The notes: generated by a model from the letters alone, not told the origin. 64,000 nt of DNA from Deltaproteobacteria bacterium (GCA_033763315.1 JANRKS010000007.1:128001-192000); one strand, 5' to 3'. Shown: positions 1,993 to 55,366, numbered from the stretch's first letter. Made by a program: numbers and translations.

Positions 1993-3354
1993 ATGCCGAA
2001 AACGTCTGAAAACAACGTCCTTGATGAATTGCGCCAGGATCCCACCAACAAGGTGAAGGTGGCGATCACGGACATCGACGGCGTCTTGCGCGGCAAGTAT
2101 CTGCACAAGGACAAATTCTTCGGTGCCACTGAAGGCGGCTTCGGCTTTTGCAACGTCATCTTCGGGTGGGACGCCAACGACGTTTGCTACGACAACGTGA
2201 GCTTTACCGGCTGGCATACCGGTTACCCTGACGCTTTGGCCCGCCCTGATCTCAGCACCTTCCGCCGCGTGCCGTGGGACAACCACGTTCCGTTTTTTTT
2301 GGCCGACTTTGAAGACGCGCAAGGCGCGCCGTTGGCGATTTGCCCGCGCAAGCTGCTGCGGCAAGTGATCGAGCGGACGAAGGCGGCTGGATTCGAAGCC
2401 AAAACCGGCATGGAGTTTGAGTGGTTTAACTTCATTGAGACGCCGCAAAGCTGGAAAGACAAACACTTCACGAACCCGCAACCGATCACACCCGGAATGT
2501 TCGGCTATTCGCTGCTGCGCACCAGCCGCAACCTGCCGTTCTTCAACGCCCTGATGGACGAGATGCAAGCCTTTCGCATTCCCATCGAAGGGCTTCACAC
2601 CGAAACAGGCCCCGGCGTGTTGGAAGCCGCGATCCTTTACTCGGATGCGCTTGAATCTGCGGATCGCGCGGCGTTGTTTAAAACGGGCGCCAAAGAGATT
2701 GCCGCGCGGTTTGGGATCATGCCCACGTTCATGGCCAAATGGAACACCAAGCTGCCGGGCTCAAGTGGGCACCTGCACCAAAGCTTGTGGTCAGCTGGCA
2801 AGAACGCCTTTTACGACGCGCAAGCGCCGCATACCATGAGCGCCACGTACCAAAGCTATCTGGCCGGCATCCTAAAGTGCTTGCCCGAGATCTTGCCGAT
2901 GTTCGCGCCCACAGTGAACAGCTACAAACGTTTGGTGGATGGATACTGGGCACCCACGCGGGTGTCTTGGGGGGTCGACAACCGCACGGTTGCGTGTCGG
3001 GTGATCCCGGGCAGCGAAAAATCCACGCGACTTGAACTGCGTGTGCCTGGCGCCGACGTCAATCCTTACCTCTCTATCGCTGCGGCCTTGGCGGCAGGCC
3101 TATACGGCATCCAAAATCAGCTGCCGTTGACGCTGCCGCCCCTGACGGGCAGCGCGTATATGGCCGAACACGCTGAACGGTTGCCGCGAACCTTGCAGGA
3201 GGCCACGGCGCGCATGCGCGATTCTAAGATTGCACGCGAGCTGTTCGGGGCTGCTTTCGTTGATCACTTCGTGGCCACGCGAGACTGGGAGTGGCGACAA
3301 GCTCAAGAGGCTGTGACATCGTGGGAATTGGAGCGGTATTTCGAAATCGTCTGA
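1993..3354 (+). CDS. Glutamine synthetase-like gamma-glutamyl-amine ligase (PuuA/GlnA4-like)
   Basis: DIDGVLRGK, EFEWF, HTETGPG, MAK...GSSGHLHQS, NSYKRL, WGVDNRT, RLELRVPGADVNPY motifs. Confidence 0.9.
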   Translation: MPKTSENNVLDELRQDPTNKVKVAITDIDGVLRGKYLHKDKFFGATEGGFGFCNVIFGWDANDVCYDNVSFTGWHTGYPDALARPDLSTFRRVPWDNHVPFFLADFEDAQGAPLAICPRKLLRQVIERTKAAGFEAKTGMEFEWFNFIETPQSWKDKHFTNPQPITPGMFGYSLLRTSRNLPFFNALMDEMQAFRIPIEGLHTETGPGVLEAAILYSDALESADRAALFKTGAKEIAARFGIMPTFMAKWNTKLPGSSGHLHQSLWSAGKNAFYDAQAPHTMSATYQSYLAGILKCLPEILPMFAPTVNSYKRLVDGYWAPTRVSWGVDNRTVACRVIPGSEKSTRLELRVPGADVNPYLSIAAALAAGLYGIQNQLPLTLPPLTGSAYMAEHAERLPRTLQEATARMRDSKIARELFGAAFVDHFVATRDWEWRQAQEAVTSWELERYFEIV

Positions 3355-46776: not shown

Positions 46777-47214
46777 ATGAAATTCCCCCCCAAGACCGAC
46801 GGCACCAACTAAAAACGTGTGCATCGCGCGCCCAGATCGCTGAGGTTCAAAACCTGCGCCGTTCACTCGTTCCGATTTACGAGCGACGCGCGCCAGAATC
46901 AACGCTGCTGGAAGGGGATACTGGAGCTCCTTGGAGAAAACGTCTTCGCGCCTACATTGGCGACAGCGCGGGCGCCGCCAAGCGACGAAGCCGACTGGTA
47001 GCAGGGTGTGTTGGCGGAGAGTCAATGGTGGCGAAGCAGGGCCGGCGATGGCCAAGGGATACGTCTGTCCCGTGGACTAAAATAGGCGCAGAATCCTTGT
47101 TTTCTCTGGGTGGAACGAAGTTTACGGAAGGGACGTTATCGGTCCCTTGAAGCGCTTTGCCTCAATGGTTGCCCTCATGACGCAGGCGCAAATGCAGCTT
47201 TGAAACGCCTATGC
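46777..47214 (+). mobile_element. Decayed IS91/ISCR-like transposase remnant with oriIS-like end
   Basis: Fragments ..DGT.., AVHSFRF and ILELLG....PTLATARAPP resemble the C-terminus of IS91-family transposases; CTTTGA-N4-CCTAT at 47198-47212. Confidence 0.6.
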
Positions 47215-47375: not shown

Positions 47376-48500
47376 ATGCACAGTAGATCAATTGCCAGAT
47401 TCTTATGCGGAGCGGCTTCGATTTCGATGCTCGGAAGTTTCTCCTTTCAAGCACAAGCTCGAACAGTGCAAGGCGTTGATCGCGACGGTGATGGACGAGC
47501 AGACGTGGCCGTTTACCGTCCATTAAACGCTCGATGGTTTGTCACGATATCAAACGGCGGTGAGAGCAACGAAGTATTTGGAAACAAAGGAGATATCGCT
47601 GTGCCAGGTGACTATGACGGTGACGGCAGAACAGACCTCGCGGTCTTCCATCCTTCGAATGGCTTCTGGTTCATCAATCACTCGTCGGGCATTGCACCGA
47701 AAGCCAAACAATGGGGGCTATCCGGGGATGTGCCAGTGCCAGCGGACTACGACGGCGATGGCAAGACGGATCTTGCGGTCTATCGTCCGTCTTCCGGCTA
47801 CTGGTACCTGATCAATTCAAGGAGTGGTCTAAGCGAATCACGTGGTTGGGGGCTTTCAGACGACGTACCACTTCCTGGCGACTACAATGGAGACGGACGT
47901 TTTGACTTTGCTGTGTACAGACCATCACTGGCTCAATGGCACATCCTGCTCAATGGAAGCGCACAGACGATCTTTTCAATATGGGGAGATGCTGGCGATG
48001 TTCCGGTGGTCGCAGATTTCGACGGCGATTGGGTAACTGATACGGCCATCTATCGCCCAAGGGATGGGTACTTCCATATCAAGCTTGCAAGCGGACTGCG
48101 CCAATACCGATTCGTTGGAGCAAACCAAATACCCATCGTCGGCGACTATGATGGCGACGGCAAGGCTGACCCCGCTGTTTGGAACACGCAAACCAGCCTC
48201 TTCACGATCAGCCTGATGGCAACGAACGTGATGAAGACGGAAGTCCTAGGGTTTAATGACTTCACGGAGTACGGCCGAGATGTCCCGCTTGTTTCCACTC
48301 TCTATGCTCAGCAAAGCGTTCCGAGGATCGCTTTAGCGCAAGGGACTTGGTGTTGTGCGTCCTGTAGCCCGGATGGCAAGACTTGCGGACTATGCCAGGT
48401 AAAGCCTGGTACAGGATTGTGTCCAACTGGGACCAAAACAAAAACCGGAGACTGCGAGTCGACGGATGATGGAGACTTTTTAGACCTGACTTGTAGATGA
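47376..48500 (+). CDS. Secreted FG-GAP/VCBS repeat beta-propeller protein with Cys-rich tail
   Basis: Signal peptide ending AQA; six (G/A)DYDGDG..D.AVYRP-type repeats; 8-Cys C-terminus. Confidence 0.88.
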   Translation: MHSRSIARFLCGAASISMLGSFSFQAQARTVQGVDRDGDGRADVAVYRPLNARWFVTISNGGESNEVFGNKGDIAVPGDYDGDGRTDLAVFHPSNGFWFINHSSGIAPKAKQWGLSGDVPVPADYDGDGKTDLAVYRPSSGYWYLINSRSGLSESRGWGLSDDVPLPGDYNGDGRFDFAVYRPSLAQWHILLNGSAQTIFSIWGDAGDVPVVADFDGDWVTDTAIYRPRDGYFHIKLASGLRQYRFVGANQIPIVGDYDGDGKADPAVWNTQTSLFTISLMATNVMKTEVLGFNDFTEYGRDVPLVSTLYAQQSVPRIALAQGTWCCASCSPDGKTCGLCQVKPGTGLCPTGTKTKTGDCESTDDGDFLDLTCR

Positions 48501-48715
48501 TCAACAATTCTCATCTGCCACAGAAATGTGGCTCAAGGTCGCTGCGACGATCTCTGCATGGGTCGCGCATCCCCCCTCAGAAACTGCAGTCGAGGTGTGG
48601 CCATTGACGGCCTGTCTCTCCTGACAAAAACAAGTGCGGCGGCAGTTTGTGCTGCGCATGGTTCTTAGCTCGTTTCTCACCACATTCAGAAGTTCTCAGA
48701 TCAAAGGTATCTCAT

Positions 48716-50683
48716 ATGAAGAAGACTCAATGGATTTTCACTATCCTTCTGATGGGGATTCCCTTCACTTTTACCTCGCTGGGAATCGACAAACCTACGG
48801 TAGCAGCAGAGCCGGCTGCTGCAGAACCTGCAGGTCCCTTTGAAAAAGCCTGGGCTGTCCTCACGAAACTCAAATCAGACCTCGATCCATGGATCGATGC
48901 GGCCAGCTATGCCAAAAAGTTGATTGAAAAGTTTTACGGGGTACCAACAGAAATCGAGCTAGCTCGAGATGAAATCATTGCCGAGATAAAGAACACCCAG
49001 ATTACACGGCTGGAAGGAACGATAATCGGAATGCTCAATAACTTCGCCGATGTTGTCCGTGATCCCAATAACATGCACAACAGCTTTCAGCTTAATCTCA
49101 TCAAATCTCAAGCAGATCTGGTGCTCGGCGAAATGCAATCGTTGATAGAAAGACGTGATTCGGTTTCTGTGAAAGAGCTTGCCGTCGCGAGCAATCTCGC
49201 CACAGCCGTTGGCGCTGCGGCCCGAAAGCTTCTTGGTATGGAGTCCGCGATTTCTCCCCTTCTCCAGCGACAGATGGATATGAACTATTCGGTTGTAGGT
49301 GTTGATTCTTACTATGTGAATAGGTCCGCAGTGCGAGACTCTGCGGGCTCCAGCTTGCTGTGGTCCGTGATCGATACGCCAGCGTTTTACTGTGATAGCA
49401 CGGAGGCACGGGCTGAACTTGCTAACAAGCGCATTATAACCCTACACTCCCCGCCAGGCGGAACGATCGCGAATGCCGTTTATTGCAAGCACAAGGATGG
49501 AAAGTGCTTCGCGTATTACAAGGACCCAAGTCCGATCGCAAATGGCCTTGCGGAGGGAGTGGGAAGTCCCAAAACAACATTTCCAATATGCTGGAAAGAA
49601 ACGCACTCGCGAGCATTGAGAGCCTTCGATGATAATCCGACGGTCAAGGCCATCAAAAAGGCGATGCAGCAATCATATTTTTCAGGATACAGGCCATCGG
49701 CGATATCAGGACCCTTCATCATTAGCGGATGTCTGTCAAAGGCGGCAAATTCAATTCTGGACTTCGACGGTGATTGCACGAGCGATCTCGCTGTTTACCG
49801 CCCAGGGTACACTAGTTCCTTCGAAGTTCTTCTGAGTCGGACAGCGAGCTTCAATTCCACCTCAATGCCTCTCGGTGGCTACAACGACCTTCCTGTCCCA
49901 GGGGACTACGATGGTGATGGAAAATCAGACGCCGCCGCTTATAGGATCGCAGACGGTCTGTGGTCGATAGCCCCTAGCTCCGGCGCTGCGCCGTACTCGC
50001 GGGCATGGGGGCTAGAAGGAGACACACCCGTTCCTGCTGACTACGATGGTGACGGAATGACCGACATCGCGGTCTACCGGCCTAGCAATGGCCATTGGTA
50101 TGTTTGGCCGAGTGGTGGTGGCGATAGATATGCGGTGCCATGGGGGCTGAGCACGGACATTCCAGTCCCCGGCGACTACGATGGCGACGCGAAAGCAGAT
50201 TTCACGATTTGGCGCCCAGGGGATGGCAATTGGCACGTGCGTCCTACATCAGGAGCGGCGCCATACGCAGTTCAGTGGGGGCTCCAAGGTGATCATCCAA
50301 TCCCACGAGATTTTGATGGCGACGGACGACTTGACTTTGCTGTTCGCAGGGACGGTCAATATGGCGTTTACGTAATGCCAAGTAACGGAGGAAGCAGATA
50401 CTTCGTGGCGTTTGGGAACCCAGACGACATTGCCGTTCCGGCTGACTTTGATGGCGATGGGAAGGCGGACCAGGCCGTTTGGCAAAGAGCCAAAGCATTT
50501 TGGTGGTACAAAAGGAGCACGGGAGGGGATCGAGTCCCCTACGACTCTAATTGGGGGCGCTCACCGCCTCCAAATTGGGAGCCCGTGAATCCGACTATCG
50601 GTCGACAATGGGGAACGAACCGAGATTTCCCCCTTGGTTCGCAGCTTCACGGAAACTTCTCCTGGGCCGGCGTATTTAGGTAG
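48716..50683 (+). CDS. Secreted protein with N-terminal helical domain and C-terminal FG-GAP/VCBS repeats
   Basis: Signal-like N-terminus MKKTQWIFTILL; six DFDGD/DYDGD repeats with WG...D.PVP. Confidence 0.86.
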   Translation: MKKTQWIFTILLMGIPFTFTSLGIDKPTVAAEPAAAEPAGPFEKAWAVLTKLKSDLDPWIDAASYAKKLIEKFYGVPTEIELARDEIIAEIKNTQITRLEGTIIGMLNNFADVVRDPNNMHNSFQLNLIKSQADLVLGEMQSLIERRDSVSVKELAVASNLATAVGAAARKLLGMESAISPLLQRQMDMNYSVVGVDSYYVNRSAVRDSAGSSLLWSVIDTPAFYCDSTEARAELANKRIITLHSPPGGTIANAVYCKHKDGKCFAYYKDPSPIANGLAEGVGSPKTTFPICWKETHSRALRAFDDNPTVKAIKKAMQQSYFSGYRPSAISGPFIISGCLSKAANSILDFDGDCTSDLAVYRPGYTSSFEVLLSRTASFNSTSMPLGGYNDLPVPGDYDGDGKSDAAAYRIADGLWSIAPSSGAAPYSRAWGLEGDTPVPADYDGDGMTDIAVYRPSNGHWYVWPSGGGDRYAVPWGLSTDIPVPGDYDGDAKADFTIWRPGDGNWHVRPTSGAAPYAVQWGLQGDHPIPRDFDGDGRLDFAVRRDGQYGVYVMPSNGGSRYFVAFGNPDDIAVPADFDGDGKADQAVWQRAKAFWWYKRSTGGDRVPYDSNWGRSPPPNWEPVNPTIGRQWGTNRDFPLGSQLHGNFSWAGVFR

Positions 50684-50765: not shown

Positions 50766-51537
50766 GTAAGCGTTCAGGCCCCCGAAAAAGTTGTCAAAAT
50801 CGAATGCCTGACGATTTGCTAAGAAAGGGGATCGACAGCAGATCGCAAACGTGATCTACCTTGGTCGTTGGACGACAAGGCAAAGATCGCAGAGCTCACG
50901 GCGCAGCTGCTGGCCAAAGACGTAGTGATCGAGGAGCTGCGGCAGGAGATCGTTGAGCTCAAGGGTGTGGTGGCTGAGTTGAGGGCGCTGGTGGCCGATT
51001 TGACCGAGAGGCTTGGCCAGAACTCTCGCAATTCACACAAGCCGTCGTCAAGCGATGGCCCCGGCGCCACCAGGAATTCGGGCAAGCCTAAACACGGCTC
51101 CGATCGGAAGCGCGGTGGCCAAAAGGGCCACCGCGGCCGCCATCGTGAGCTGCTGCCCGCAGATCAGGTCGACGCTGTAGTGGATGTGTTCCCATCGCAT
51201 TGCGAGGGGTGCGCGGTGCGCGGAGCCGCTGCCACCGATTCCTGACATGCAAGCCGCACGCAGGTGACCGAGGTGCCACCAATAAAGCCTCACACGACTG
51301 AATATCGCCAGCATGCGGTGACATGCCCATGTTGCGCGCACTCCACGCGCGCCACGGGCGCCGGCATCATTCCAAGATCCCCGTTTGGCCCGCGTTTAAT
51401 GGCCCTGGTGGCCTTGCTTAGCGGCGTGTACCATCTGAGCCGCCGTCGCACAGTGCAGGCGCTGCACGACATCCTAGGCGTGCGCATTTCGTTGGGCGCC
51501 GTCAGCGCTGTTGAAGCACGTGTTAGTGATGCGGTTA
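50766..51537 (+). mobile_element. Truncated IS66-family element (single-ORF type) with nonsense-disrupted transposase
   Basis: Left end GTAAGCGTTCAG at 50766; coiled coil + QNSRNSHKPSSSD + RGGQKGH + CxxC zinc finger + FGPRL..LS.R; in-frame TGA at 51243-51245; DDE domain missing. Confidence 0.88.
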
Positions 51538-51690
51538 AGCATAGAGCGTGTCCCAATGCGACGTTAGGAACGCATCGACAGCAACGGCATCCTGCGCTTC
51601 GACATGATCAACGGCTTGGGCGAAACCGTGTACAGCTTGCAACTGGCTCCGCCATAATTTCGGTGGGTAGAGCTGCGGACAGGGGTTCAT
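51535..51690 (-). pseudogene. 51-aa ORF translationally coupled to the MNIO partner gene, probably truncated at the IS66 junction
   Basis: ATG at 51690 overlaps the TGA of 51687..52028; MNPCPQLYPPKLWRSQLQAVHGFAQAVDHVEAQDAVAVDAFLTSHWDTLYA*; stop falls where IS66 similarity ends. Confidence 0.5.
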
Positions 51691-52028
51691 GCCGTGACGA
51701 ACTCCCACGCGTGGAACAGCTTGGCTTCCTCCTTCGGCGAGAACGCCAAGAGCGGCGAGGCTTCGTGGTACGCGCTAAATCGAGCCGCGGCGCTGTTCGG
51801 ATCGAGCTGCCAATCCGCGCGATACTCTTTGCTGCCGCGGAGTAAACGCTCGAAGCGCAGTCGCGCCACAAGTAGTGCACTCATGCGCAACCCATCTGTG
51901 TTTATGGCGGCCAAAGCCGCGCGTAGCGGATGCTGGTCGTCCAACGCCTTGATCGCCGATGCAAGCGCGCCCTGCGGATCGCGCGCTCTCAGCACATGTA
52001 CAAGGATGTTTTCGTAGTCATCCATCAT
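51687..52028 (-). CDS. Small helical protein, candidate MNIO partner
   Basis: 113 aa, 12 bp downstream of the DUF692 gene with a GAAGGAAG-like RBS; DGLR..ALLV..LRFERL motif. Confidence 0.7.
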   Translation of the reverse strand: MMDDYENILVHVLRARDPQGALASAIKALDDQHPLRAALAAINTDGLRMSALLVARLRFERLLRGSKEYRADWQLDPNSAAARFSAYHEASPLLAFSPKEEAKLFHAWEFVTA

Positions 52029-52040
52029 AGATGGCTTCCT

Positions 52041-52928
52041 TCATGCCGCTTGCTTCACCACACACGATCGCAGGCGCCGCATTTCTTCTCGAAGCAGGCC
52101 CACGTCAGAGTCCGCGATGGTGCCCTCCATGCGTTCCAAAACGATCGCGCGCAAATGCGAGCATCGAGGCAATGCGACGTCGAGCAAACGCCACACCTCA
52201 GGCGGAATAGGGCCATCGTGGCCATCCAAACGCAGGCTGCGGCCGCCAGGCAGCCAACGTGGATCAGAATCAGTGCCGCCGGCCATATGGATTTCGATCA
52301 CTTGGTCAAGCGGCAGTGCTGCAAGGTACTCCTCTGCATCAAACCCAAGATTGCTGGCCATCGCGAACACATTCGCCAAATCCAACAACAGCCGCCGACT
52401 TGGGTTCTGCAGAACGCTGCGAATGAATGCCGGCTCATCCAACGGGTTGCCGCACACAAAATGCGATGCTGGGTTTTCGATGCCCACCACGGGCACAACT
52501 GTACTCATCTCATCAAGGCGCAAGCGAACGCATTCCGCTGCTTCCGCCGTCATAGGCAACGGCAACGGAAGCGCCGTATTCTGGCCTGCAGGCGCCGTAA
52601 TGCCCAGATGATCTGTGTACCAAAGAAACTGGAACAGGGCCTGATCACGGGCCATTGCAGCTCTCCACTGTGCGCGGCGATACACCTCCGCAGCGCTGCC
52701 ACCTCCGCCAACCGAATAGCCAACACCGTGGGCAAGAAACCTCTGCCCACTGCGCCTTCCCATGCTTAAGAACAAGGCATGATAGTCGTTCGTATGCAGT
52801 CGCCCTTCTACTTGCTGCCACAACGTTTCGGGTGCCACTTCAAAGATATCGGGCTCTTCTTCGAGGAAGGCCCCCAAGATGTCTAGCGTCGCTTCATCGG
52901 GTGGCAACACGAAGCCTACCGGGATCAT
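52041..52928 (-). CDS. DUF692 family multinuclear non-heme iron oxidative enzyme (MNIO)
   Basis: FEVAPE, HGVGYSVG, WYTDHLG, IENP, LLLDLAN, EIHMAG, DGHD, IVLER iron-ligand motifs. Confidence 0.92.
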   Translation of the reverse strand: MIPVGFVLPPDEATLDILGAFLEEEPDIFEVAPETLWQQVEGRLHTNDYHALFLSMGRRSGQRFLAHGVGYSVGGGGSAAEVYRRAQWRAAMARDQALFQFLWYTDHLGITAPAGQNTALPLPLPMTAEAAECVRLRLDEMSTVVPVVGIENPASHFVCGNPLDEPAFIRSVLQNPSRRLLLDLANVFAMASNLGFDAEEYLAALPLDQVIEIHMAGGTDSDPRWLPGGRSLRLDGHDGPIPPEVWRLLDVALPRCSHLRAIVLERMEGTIADSDVGLLREEMRRLRSCVVKQAA

Positions 52929-53737
52929 TGGTGTCCCTCCGGCTCGAGTCTTACGTTGAACGGAGCCAGCGGCCGGCCTGCGAAGAGCACGTTGTTATCT
53001 GCTGTGAAAACCAAACTTTCGGCTGAGCCCGTTTGCACAACACAACCGGCTTGATCAATAACCTCCACATTTCCGCTGGCATCAAGGCGGACGATGTTAT
53101 TGCCTTGCATGTGCAGGCCTACCCAAGCCGTAAGCTGTCGCGCCCGCTCGGAGGATGGTTCCTGCACCGGCTGAACCTCGCTGCTCACCGGCAAAGCAGG
53201 TTCTGCTTTCGAAAGCTCGACGAGAGCGAACGCAACATCCGCATTCTCAGGCAGCGCTGCCCATGCGCTCCGCATTAGCATCTGGGGCCCCTCAAGCTGA
53301 ACCGCATTGCCGAACCCCAGCGGCATCACGTGGCTGGCTGATAGTGCTTTCGCGAGTTCGGTCAACACCGCCGGCTGCGCGTCAACGAGGATGGCGTCGC
53401 TGCGAACGTCTTGGTCAATGACGAACCGCTGCAATGACAAAGCGGCCTCCTCTGCAGACGACGACGGTGCGTGCCAGGATGCTTTCCACACAACGCCACC
53501 TTGACCCCACAGGCGCTCGCGTTTTCCGTTAATCCTTGTTTCCACGGTGTCTTCGATCGGATCAAATTCCACCAGTAACCCCGACGTCACGGGCATCTGG
53601 TTTACCCATAAGGCTTCAGCTTTCCGCGTGGCCTCGTCCACGAGCACGTAGCTCGAGCCATGCATGGCAGCGTCGCCGCACCCAACGTGCAAAAGCAGCG
53701 CTGCGATCACCGGCAGGCAAACAATGTTCCTATTCAT
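52925..53737 (-). CDS. Hypothetical lipoprotein in the MNIO operon
   Basis: Hydrophobic signal ending HVGC; overlaps both neighbours (8 bp and 4 bp). Confidence 0.72.
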   Translation of the reverse strand: MNRNIVCLPVIAALLLHVGCGDAAMHGSSYVLVDEATRKAEALWVNQMPVTSGLLVEFDPIEDTVETRINGKRERLWGQGGVVWKASWHAPSSSAEEAALSLQRFVIDQDVRSDAILVDAQPAVLTELAKALSASHVMPLGFGNAVQLEGPQMLMRSAWAALPENADVAFALVELSKAEPALPVSSEVQPVQEPSSERARQLTAWVGLHMQGNNIVRLDASGNVEVIDQAGCVVQTGSAESLVFTADNNVLFAGRPLAPFNVRLEPEGHQ

Positions 53738-54767
53738 TCGTTCCCCTTTCGTCCTGGGAGTCAAATGTTAAGAAATCGAGGATGCGCCGGCTGCGGGCTG
53801 GCACGTGGCCCATGCCGCAGGCGAACCCAAACATCGAATCATCCTTTTCACCAGGCAGCCATTCGATGTCCAAGCCACACCCGTTTGCTTGAGCCCAACG
53901 GCTTCCCGCAATACGGCGGTGGCAGAGCGCCATGCGCGAGGCCTCCGCCACGAGATGCGTCAGCCTGCCGCGTTCACTGCCCTGCGCGGCATAACTTTGT
54001 GCAAGCAGCGACGCGGCTGCCGCTAGAACCACATCGGCAAGCTGTGGGTTGGTTGCAACTTCGTTGGCTGTGATCGCCTGCGCCTTGAGAAACGTGTTCG
54101 CTCCGTTGTGGGTGCCCAGCTTGTTTCTTGCCTGATCCGCGCGCACCAGAAGCGCATCTTTGGATGGAGTCAAGCCTTTGTTCAGCAACTCTGTCAGTAA
54201 GCGAATTCGCAAAGAGATGAGCTCATCTTGTTTACGCTCCCGACGTGCGAATGCCGGGGCCCAGTCCTTCTCTGAACTATCACCTTCCAGCTCCACATCG
54301 TATGGGTCTGGTAAGGTGACATCAAGGTTTGTGGTGCGGGCAGGCAAGGCTTCAGTTTCGATGAGCACCATCAACGGATCGTTCGACGATGGCGGTGTTT
54401 GTGGTGCCAATCTGTTGATCGCGAACATCGGAGCACAAACAACCTCGCACAAACCGAGCAAGGCCAACGCTTCATCCCCGCCGTGGTTCAGCAACTCGCC
54501 GAACGCGTGAGCGCGCCCCCAATCGTGTTCTTTCGCAACGAAAACCAGCAGCGGCTTTCCCACTGCGGCTGCGCGTGCAAAGGCGGCTGAAAGAAGCTGG
54601 TCCCAACGCAGTGCTTGCATAAATGCCCGCGCTGGCTTTGCCTTGCCGCCAGGGCAGGCCTCATCAGCAAACGCTGCTCGAATCCAAATCGGAATCGCCA
54701 GCGCCGCCGCCGACTTAACAAACGCGCGGCGTGCAGCATGCCTTCCAAGTCGCTCCCTAGCCTTCAT
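53730..54767 (-). CDS. Tat-exported protein with thioredoxin-like N-terminal region and C-terminal GCG...ACGMGH motif
   Basis: GGAGG RBS; ARRAFVK twin-arginine motif, AFA cleavage site; FARAAAVGKPLLVFV; RWAQANGCG...FACGMGHVP. Confidence 0.78.
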   Translation of the reverse strand: MKARERLGRHAARRAFVKSAAALAIPIWIRAAFADEACPGGKAKPARAFMQALRWDQLLSAAFARAAAVGKPLLVFVAKEHDWGRAHAFGELLNHGGDEALALLGLCEVVCAPMFAINRLAPQTPPSSNDPLMVLIETEALPARTTNLDVTLPDPYDVELEGDSSEKDWAPAFARRERKQDELISLRIRLLTELLNKGLTPSKDALLVRADQARNKLGTHNGANTFLKAQAITANEVATNPQLADVVLAAAASLLAQSYAAQGSERGRLTHLVAEASRMALCHRRIAGSRWAQANGCGLDIEWLPGEKDDSMFGFACGMGHVPARSRRILDFLTFDSQDERGTNE

Positions 54768-54794
54768 AGTGACCTCCGGTGAACGGGCCTACAA

Positions 54795-54832
54795 TAGTGA
54801 AGAGACAACCGTTCGACCCTTCGGTTTCACTA
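54795..54832 (-). promoter_or_regulatory. Putative ECF-sigma promoter (GAAACC-N16-GTCT) within a TAGTGAA/TTCACTA inverted repeat
   Basis: Minus-strand GAAACC at 54828-54823 and GTCT at 54806-54803, ~35 bp upstream of the operon start. Confidence 0.35.
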
Positions 54833-55366
54833 GAAGGTCAAAATATGAGGAGCTACGATGGGCCTTTAATCGCTGGTGGCGGCCTCGTCAGTGGCAGTGC
54901 TGTTCGCACGCGATGGATATGGAGGGGTGCTGGAGGCACGGCGCCGGCAGGGTGAAATGAAATCCGTCCCAAGACCGACGGTATCAATTGAAACGAGTGC
55001 ATCGCGCGCCCAGGTCGGCGACGTTCAGAACCCGCGCCGTTCGATCGGCGCAACTGAAGCTCGCCAAACCTTGCCACCCGGCCTTGCTTTGGCCCGAGCC
55101 CTCTGATCGCATGACGTACACCGAACTTCTATGGACATGCTGTTTCTGGTGCCTCTCTCGACCAGGAACTCGTCTTCGCCGCAGCGCAAGCAATCCTCAA
55201 GCTCATGATGTTGCTCCAGCTGCTCCCCAAGGGCTCGCCAGGGCGCGATGCCGGCACGAAGCGATCTTTGACGTCCCACGGGGATCGCGCCGATCCCATT
55301 TTGGGCTTGTAAGTGCGGCAATTGGGCCGTGCGCTTGTAGGCATGGCCAATGCAATGAAAAGCAGC

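Follow-up and report, generated by a model that had tools for sequence, protein, structure and literature searches.

A Tat-signal protein of thioredoxin-type fold as putative substrate of an MNIO enzyme in a conserved three-gene module of Myxococcota and Planctomycetota

ChrH-family MNIO enzymes (DUF692) act, according to PMC13056109, on the motif CPxCGxG, mostly CPACGMG. At their C-terminus lies a helical bundle (about 7.8 kDa) that Cyanobacteria encode as a separate protein. The same paper describes MelH, which together with the separate helical partner MelHc, needed for activity, modifies the secreted, signal-peptide-bearing 34-kDa protein MelA1 at a C-terminal CPACGMG with a mass change of -4 Da; the repeats of MelA1 are called 'tetracopeptide' (presumably tetratricopeptide) there, and its signal is of the signal-peptidase-I (Sec) type. 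For DybH, the cysteine of the CG pair is essential and is the first to be oxidised, a hydantoin takes up the Gly and Met amides, and the other cysteine closes the macrocycle only in the last step; if it is missing, glutathione is captured (10.64898/2026.10.27.762324). Here we describe a module in a stretch of 64,000 nucleotides (nt) from Deltaproteobacteria bacterium (GCA_033763315.1 JANRKS010000007.1:128001-192000; hereafter the window), in which an MNIO gene of a distinct clade is accompanied by genes for a 345-residue (345-aa) protein with a twin-arginine translocation (Tat) signal and for a 113-aa all-helical protein (Table 1).

We propose that the MNIO and its 113-aa partner modify a C-terminal cysteine loop of the 345-aa protein before Tat export, by ChrH-like chemistry, and assign this reading a probability of roughly 65%. 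From the linkage, motifs, folds and family size reported below we infer the substrate status of the exported protein, and with it the site, the chemistry, the order of events and the export route.

The conserved core of the module is one to six tandem exported-protein genes, then the MNIO gene, then a gene for a helical protein of about 110 aa. Scanning one genome per species with the exported protein identified 30 separate loci, in Polyangia/Myxococcota and Planctomycetota and in one metagenome-assembled genome (MAG) each of Acidobacteria and Pseudomonadota. At 25 of these, an MNIO gene and then the helical gene lay directly downstream of the exported-protein gene or genes, and the encoded MNIOs were 43-56% identical to that of the window. 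Four loci stop at a contig edge inside or just past the family genes, one of which (L020) shows the first residues of an MNIO-like frame. At a further Planctomycetota locus (L035:7841-8591), the exported-protein gene is present as a frameshifted fragment; the next gene is unrelated, no MNIO follows, and the fragment is apparently a decayed copy.

The reverse test, a profile of the MNIO clade run on 401 genomes of the window's phylum, gave 12 full-length matches of at least 268 bits and one truncated by its contig. An exported-protein gene stood directly upstream in 13/13, and the helical gene followed in all 12 for which downstream sequence was present. Six MNIO matches at 143-159 bits had neither the exported-protein gene upstream (0/6) nor the helical gene. 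A first-pass annotation of the window had suggested checking whether this clade always sits with a protein bearing a CGMG motif; the association was found at 25 of the 30 loci, with four uninformative and one degraded, and it separates the clade (13/13) from the outgroup (0/6).

Between one and six exported-protein genes precede a single MNIO gene, with four copies at locus L016 and six at L021. Precursor genes are themselves found tandemly multiplied. The gap between the last copy and the MNIO gene is typically 8-30 nt and therefore leaves no space for a short precursor. In the flanks and gaps of 44 clusters, no Cys-containing small open reading frame (ORF) was common to more than two loci, and the pairs that shared one were all closely related loci. 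An initial linkage of small ORFs without composition correction was discarded, as spurious Arg/Pro/Ala-rich frames joined everything. The earlier observation that no Cys-rich short precursor is visible thus holds at the window locus and, for conserved candidates, across the 44 clusters. Because of the two-way linkage, the tandem copies, the lack of a short precursor and the CGMG motif described below, the 345-aa protein is the probable substrate of the MNIO, and the first-pass proposal that the enzyme acts on a full-size Tat-signal protein gains comparative support.

No recurrent neighbour was found in a Pfam tally of 120 ORFs from 27 loci, the commonest family being protein kinase with 4/120. 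These ORFs came from a crude gene caller based on GC content at third codon positions (GC3), which may miss or mis-strand genes, and the tally leaves aside four very long ORFs and locus L007, a near-duplicate of L006. At one locus (L005; G028:C308, 1-6365), the module lies between genes for COX3 (PF00510) and SCO1/SenC (PF02630), and the MNIO is fused to the helical domain in a protein of 472 aa. This was the only copper-related neighbourhood seen, in 1 of about 44 modules, and is no more than a hint of a role in copper handling.

The exported-protein family comprised 67 clusters in a word-indexed search and 976 representatives at 50% identity in an exhaustive profile search, 509 of them with E <= 1e-30. 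Counts of motifs and signals were taken over 200 members, and invariant positions from an alignment of 32 rows (A1). As judged by motif, the window protein carries a Tat signal, with RRAFVK, an h-region and an AFA site; its N-terminus reads MKARERLGRHAARRAFVKS...AAFA, followed by DE, and TatC is encoded in the same genome (203 bits). A pair of arginines was found within the first 45 residues in 197/200 members, an AFA-like site in 150/200, and an xPxWL motif, mostly 16-17 residues past the arginines, in 145/200. R13, R14 and P26 are present in at least 90% of the A1 rows. The end of the signal peptide (residues ~20-34; window 54666-54710) is unusually conserved across phyla and reads WPxWLRxAFA. 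Since the h-regions of signal peptides are normally free to vary, this end may have a second role, such as docking of a helper.

An AlphaFold2 (AF2) model of the 345-aa protein, built from the 32-row alignment, had a predicted local distance difference test score (pLDDT) of 86.2 and a predicted template-modelling score (pTM) of 0.83, and folding is predicted throughout the protein. The model contains a beta-alpha-beta-alpha-beta-beta unit at residues 73-148, a helical domain at 169-282 and three short C-terminal strands (289-294, 299-301 and 328-332), and the beta-alpha-beta-alpha-beta-beta-alpha core of the thioredoxin type was present. In an exhaustive structural comparison the top 20 matches all had a thioredoxin-type fold; the best, 3fk8_A, aligned 114 residues within model residues 51-200 at a root-mean-square deviation (rmsd) of 3.0 and a Z of 7.4, below the tool's caution line of 8. 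Matches in a protein atlas were also thioredoxin-like, with scores of 0.79-0.82 that serve as a lead only, and Foldseek returned nothing from the PDB at E <= 0.001 for either the 345-aa or the 113-aa model. No CxxC was found after the first strand of the thioredoxin-like domain, where the A1 consensus is WxRGxAFGELLNHG. We take the CxxC of thioredoxin-fold proteins to sit usually at the WCxxC position; because that position reads W-x-R-G-x here, the protein would have no classical redox site.

Three cysteines are invariant in A1: C111 in the thioredoxin-like domain, C297 in a GCG turn between two strands, and C317 in CGMG. The other invariant residues of the C-terminal region are W291, E302, G318, M319, G320, R328 and L330. 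CGxG occurs within the last 60 residues in 197/200 members and is CGMG in 186; a His follows CGMG directly in 121 of the 197. The nearest cysteine upstream of CGxG is mostly 14-20 residues away, and a median of 18 residues (range 15-41) follows CGMG. Within the C-terminal region, model confidence is lowest at residues 311-320 (pLDDT 64); lying between confident segments, these residues fit a loop that an enzyme could reach.

The window MNIO matched PF05114 at 122.2 bits (cut-off 25), which places it in the MNIO superfamily, and its sequence matches in the PDB were 3bww_A (88.5 bits) and TglH 8hci_D (83.7 bits). Against NCBIfam it scored 99.5 bits to BufB, 98.8 to HvfB and 97.0 to ChrH, where the equivalog cut-offs are 310 (NF050167), 360 and 600 bits (NF050165), so that it belongs to neither the ChrH nor the BufB equivalog; two fused members of its clade scored 105.5 and 111 bits against the ChrH model. 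Among the best 120 relatives listed, all with at least 466 bits, every one was a clade member and was named only DUF692/UPF0276 or hypothetical. In an alignment of 25 clade MNIOs (A3; mean column identity 63%), nine columns were invariant (H67, H107, E151, D183, N186, H214, D235, H237 and E265), which bears out the earlier statement that the iron-ligand motifs are intact. Compared by listed positions, the clade columns match the order and spacing of the DybH iron ligands H65, H102, D179, H210, D228 and H230 (10.64898/2026.10.27.762324).

The six next-nearest MNIOs in the phylum were ChrH-like, with 149-325 bits to the NCBIfam ChrH model. Upstream of 4/6 lie ORFs whose products have one cysteine only and finish with ...CGMG or ...CGRG. 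These ORFs, in other Myxococcota genomes (L051:981-1463, L052:926-1330, L053:2340-2981 on the minus strand, and L054:874-1203 and 1207-1452), differ from the CPxCGxG described for the ChrH subfamily, and both L054 ORFs have lipoprotein-like N-termini.

The helical partner gene was found downstream of the MNIO gene in 25/25 loci, one of them cut by its contig, and was fused to the MNIO C-terminus in 3/25. The AF2 model of the 113-aa protein (pLDDT 96.8) has seven helices. Its top three matches among 48,161 PDB representatives were MbnC 7dz9_C (Z 6.1, rmsd 3.1, 79 aligned), the DUF2063 protein NGO1945 3dee_A (Z 4.8) and TglI 8hci_C (Z 4.8), all under the caution line of 8, and a second MbnC structure stood at rank 7. 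Three solved MNIO partner proteins as the top three would be hard to get by chance. A profile of the 113-aa family found nothing meaningful among PDB sequences (best E 0.07, a transcriptional regulator), and searches of NCBIfam and Pfam with 24 family members, at an E limit of 10, yielded only scattered single matches. The 113-aa protein had no match to DUF2063 (PF09836) at E <= 0.1, with 1/24 members matching at E 0.16, and no RRE domain was found in it. An hhalign comparison of the family with the extensions found C-terminally in three neighbouring ChrH-like MNIOs gave a match probability of 0.05%. As modelled, the 113-aa protein is like a split C-terminal domain or a short 'PME-type 2' partner, a class named in the accessible text of PMC12452194.

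The proposed sequence of events is as follows. The MNIO (295 aa) and the 113-aa partner would form the active enzyme in the cytoplasm, and this complex would bind the flexible C-terminal loop of the newly made 345-aa protein. Cys317 of CGMG would be oxidised and the C-G-M-G backbone rearranged, as the identity of the motif suggests; in the manner of ChrH, DybH and MelH, the thiol would become a thioaldehyde and the Gly and Met amides a hydantoin. The electrophilic intermediate could then react with a second thiol, in the simplest case that of Cys297 in the GCG turn (mostly 14-20 residues upstream in the family), and the loop would be stapled. The folded, modified protein would be exported by Tat, as its signal suggests, and would present outside the cytoplasm a thioredoxin-fold protein with a protein-derived group, possibly for handling metals or redox equivalents.

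A more detailed form of this proposal is possible but held tentatively. Here a hydantoin/thioaminal staple would form in the folded protein, from Cys317 to Cys297 or Cys111, and WPxWLRxAFA would dock the partner as a Tat proofreading chaperone. The 113-aa protein would then be both enzyme subunit and proofreading chaperone, delaying export until modification is done. If a thiol positioned by the fold must capture the intermediate, the protein must fold in the cytoplasm, which would explain the use of Tat; the family would be alone in this among known MNIO substrates.

Several points weigh against modification of the 345-aa protein by ChrH-like chemistry. The strict family motif is missing: there is no CPxC, and CGMG is not terminal and lies inside a region modelled as a folded domain. 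The ChrH score is no better than those of BufB and HvfB, so the chemistry could differ. Position 185 is Ala in the window MNIO and His in at least 90% of its clade. The structural matches of the partner are all below the caution line, and by sequence it matches neither DUF2063 nor the ChrH model nor the C-terminal extensions of the neighbouring MNIOs. The window copy has an extra lipoprotein gene within it and an IS66 scar beside it. Finally, the first-pass annotation had proposed modelling the MNIO with its partner and the C-terminal tail. The predicted complex with residues 283-345 was well above its controls (median score 0.60; best control 0.01), runs agreed in at least 64% of contacts, and the pLDDT of the tail chain was at least 49. 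The mark for this score was reached by 58/80 solved complexes and 2/110 mismatches, and those passing at a score of 0.60 or less were only 7/80 solved complexes and both passing mismatches; the prediction is thus weak support for binding.

The best placed of the alternatives, which we consider unlikely, retains the same substrate with bufferin/oxazolin-type chemistry. Cys297 and/or Cys317 would become a 5-thiooxazole (or an oxazolone-thioamide), and the modified cysteine would form, with Met319 and His321, a copper site in an exported copper-buffering protein. The BufB and HvfB scores on par with ChrH are consistent with this, as are the Gly after both cysteines, as in the EGKCG motif, the frequent His after CGMG, and the one related module flanked by genes for COX3 and SCO1/SenC; according to PMC12452194, most signal-peptide-bearing MNIO products have a link to copper. 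The partner argues otherwise: it is 113 aa long, where BufABC systems have one of about 250-260 aa, and is without the DUF2063-RRE architecture typical of bufferin systems. In addition, there was no copper-related family among the 25 commonest in the neighbouring ORFs, the nearest other MNIOs are ChrH-like and not BufB-like, and the exact tetrapeptide CGMG is a ChrH-family signature.

It is improbable that the Tat protein remains unmodified, its three conserved cysteines binding a metal or cofactor while the MNIO and partner act elsewhere or serve, for example, in cofactor assembly. Tat substrates are often cofactor proteins, the 345-aa protein is predicted to be fully folded with its Cys motifs within the fold, and C111 is as invariant as the other two cysteines. 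Set against this, no other conserved candidate substrate was found in or around the 44 clusters, the exported-protein gene is multiplied in tandem before one enzyme, and its product carries, letter for letter, the reactive portion of a motif proven in an MNIO substrate. The characterised MNIOs, moreover, all act on peptides or proteins, as far as covered by 10.64898/2026.10.27.762324 and the accessible text of PMC12452194 and PMC13056109.

The features of the locus are collected in Table 1. Five co-oriented, overlapping or abutting ORFs had been described in the first-pass annotation, and all were found, on the minus strand, within 51535-54767. The start codon of the lipoprotein gene (ATG) overlaps the end of the 345-aa protein gene at its last codons, the MNIO ATG overlaps the lipoprotein stop, and the 113-aa gene begins 12 nt past the MNIO stop behind a ribosome-binding-like AGGAAG. 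These junctions fit the packing of the first four genes as one operon. Among sequencing runs, none from RNA was listed for the window, and two DNA runs contained 0.09 and 0.05 of its sampled words.

Table 1. Features of the module and its flank in the window.
Feature	Position	Strand	Basis
Putative MNIO substrate, 345-aa Tat-signal protein	53730..54767	-	ORF; no Pfam/NCBIfam match
Twin-arginine signal peptide, residues 1-34 of the 345-aa protein	54666..54767	-	RRAFVK, h-region with IPIWIR, AFA cleavage-like site
Predicted modification region, residues 288-332 of the 345-aa protein	53772..53906	-	GSRWAQANGC(297)G ... FAC(317)GMGHVPARSRRILDF
Lipoprotein-like gene, between substrate and MNIO genes	52925..53737	-	Lineage-specific, outside the conserved module
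MNIO (DUF692), 295 aa, distinct clade	52041..52928	-	PF05114 MbnB_TglH_ChrH, E 2.9e-35
All-helical MNIO partner (putative), 113 aa	51687..52028	-	Downstream of MNIO in related loci; AF2 fold
Small ORF, 57 aa from GTG / 51 aa from first ATG	51535..51708	-	No homologue, no family match
IS66-family transposase remnant, flank of module	50868..51545	+	DUF6444 E 2.4e-15

Two of the five ORFs appear to stand outside the system. The lipoprotein-like ORF has 279 aa when read from TTG (52925-53764) and 270 aa, from the ATG at 53737, in its database form, and contains a lipobox-like LHVGC. It had been proposed as an envelope anchor or partner, a role that its distribution argues against: among 5.8 billion proteins it formed three clusters, its own included and two at 57% identity, and no tblastn match was found in the 30 homologous loci. 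Nor does it resemble the lipoprotein encoded upstream of the module in G028, and metagenome scans with the lipoprotein and with its closest homologue, P0002, gave no relative. Judged by this distribution, it is a local, lineage-specific insertion outside the mechanism, and would be co-transcribed by position only. The small ORF, earlier counted as an operon member in its 51-aa form, has a homologue in none of the homologous loci; its frame overlaps the last part of the 113-aa gene and abuts the IS66 remnant, and because of this placement it is probably not a gene.

The IS66 remnant matched NF033517 (transpos_IS66) only over positions 48-138 of 387. Direct repeats of about 90-105 nt with 79-84% identity, at 46781-46869 and 54960-55047, bracket an 8.2-kb segment that holds the MNIO module, lower-GC FG-GAP genes and the IS66 remnant; there was no tRNA near the repeats. 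Each repeat copy lies upstream of a plus-strand gene and so could be a shared 5' region, not an insertion scar. The two FG-GAP repeat genes (window 47598-50475) have a 135-nt periodic repeat encoding PxPGDYDGDGKxD units in nine copies and a GC content of 0.50-0.53, against about 0.60 around them. The exported-protein family was present in 2/41 related genomes and in 0/2 of the same genus, and the module was likely gained by transfer. That the window copy is a horizontally acquired, decaying and non-working relic is very improbable: the abutting IS66 remnant, the direct repeats of about 90 nt, the sparse occurrence in related genomes, the inserted foreign lipoprotein gene and the Ala at position 185 would suit it, but all four genes are open and full length relative to their families, every invariant column of the three alignments is retained, and the start/stop overlaps and ribosome-binding-like sites are intact.

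A second MNIO system, of canonical type, was found in the same genome (L003; G000 contig C8, about 155.0-157.2 kb). Its ORFs (1056-1382, about 1500-2367 and 2294-3175) encode a precursor of 108 aa that has a signal peptide and repeats the unit EKGSCKGKDGCKGKDGCKGKDGKK, an MNIO (PF05114, 364.6 bits) and a DUF2063 protein of 293 aa. The system looks oxazolin/bufferin-like, and its repeat differs from the EGKCG motif.

That MNIOs modify proteins, including secreted ones, was published in 2025-2026, as the accessible text of PMC12452194 and PMC13056109 shows. The principle is published; the window module represents a large family without a name, related to a system that first appeared in print in 2026. 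The accessible part of PMC13056109 also mentions small clusters from Myxococcota and Planctomycetota in its ChrH network, and enzymes of the window clade may be among them. In the libraries searched the family has no name, and no text was found there that connects MNIO enzymes to Tat or to the thioredoxin fold; 'Tat' and 'twin-arginine' had no occurrence in the accessible text of PMC12452194 and PMC13056109, nor 'thioredoxin' in that of PMC13056109. New here in comparison with ChrH, DybH and MelH are the Tat signal, the thioredoxin fold, the internal motif and the distant second cysteine. If modification of the 345-aa protein by the MNIO and its partner is confirmed, the cysteine rearrangement of the ChrH/DybH type would reach beyond peptide tails, into a loop within a folded protein of ~30 kDa, in the first case to join maturation in the style of RiPPs (peptides that are ribosomally synthesised and then modified post-translationally) to Tat export. 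Two large families common in Planctomycetota and Myxococcota, the exported protein and the MNIO clade named 'DUF692', would gain a function. The module also offers a natural test of the DybH mechanism, namely whether a distant thiol placed by the fold can capture the proposed episulfide intermediate.

Among known systems, the Thioredoxin_7, DsbD-C and DsbH-like periplasmic proteins (3fk8, 1vrs_D and 2ju5) share the fold of residues ~51-200 at Z 7.4 to 5.7 and, unlike the window family, have CxxC. The 113-aa protein resembles in fold the N-terminal helical domains of MbnC, TglI and NGO1945, and differs from these proteins in having no RRE or C-terminal domain and no sequence similarity to them. 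Bufferins and oxazolins (BufABC, HvfABC) likewise combine exported Cys-containing substrates, some of them long, with an MNIO, a helical partner and a possible metal role; their Sec signals, repeated Cys motifs, DUF2063-RRE partners of ~260 aa and thiooxazole chemistry were not found in the window module. With ChrA/ChrH (chryseobasin) and DybA/DybH the module shares CGMG, the iron-ligand pattern of the MNIO and, as placed and modelled, a helical part after the TIM barrel, although the ChrH/DybH substrates, in the accessible text of PMC13056109, are peptides of 6-8 kDa in contrast to the 345-aa protein, and the fused bundle of ~7.8 kDa there would correspond here to a 113-aa part that is usually separate (fused in 3/25) and has no detected sequence similarity to it. 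MelA1 ends exactly in CPACGMG, whereas the window protein has a thioredoxin fold and a Tat signal, its family carries CGMG 15-41 residues from the end, and in place of CPxC there is a second cysteine 14-20 residues upstream; the window MNIO also reaches just 97 bits where the ChrH model has a cut-off of 600. Like the mel cluster of a Melainabacteria MAG, however, the window module has no short precursor, a candidate CGMG target, and an MNIO encoded with a small separate helical protein.

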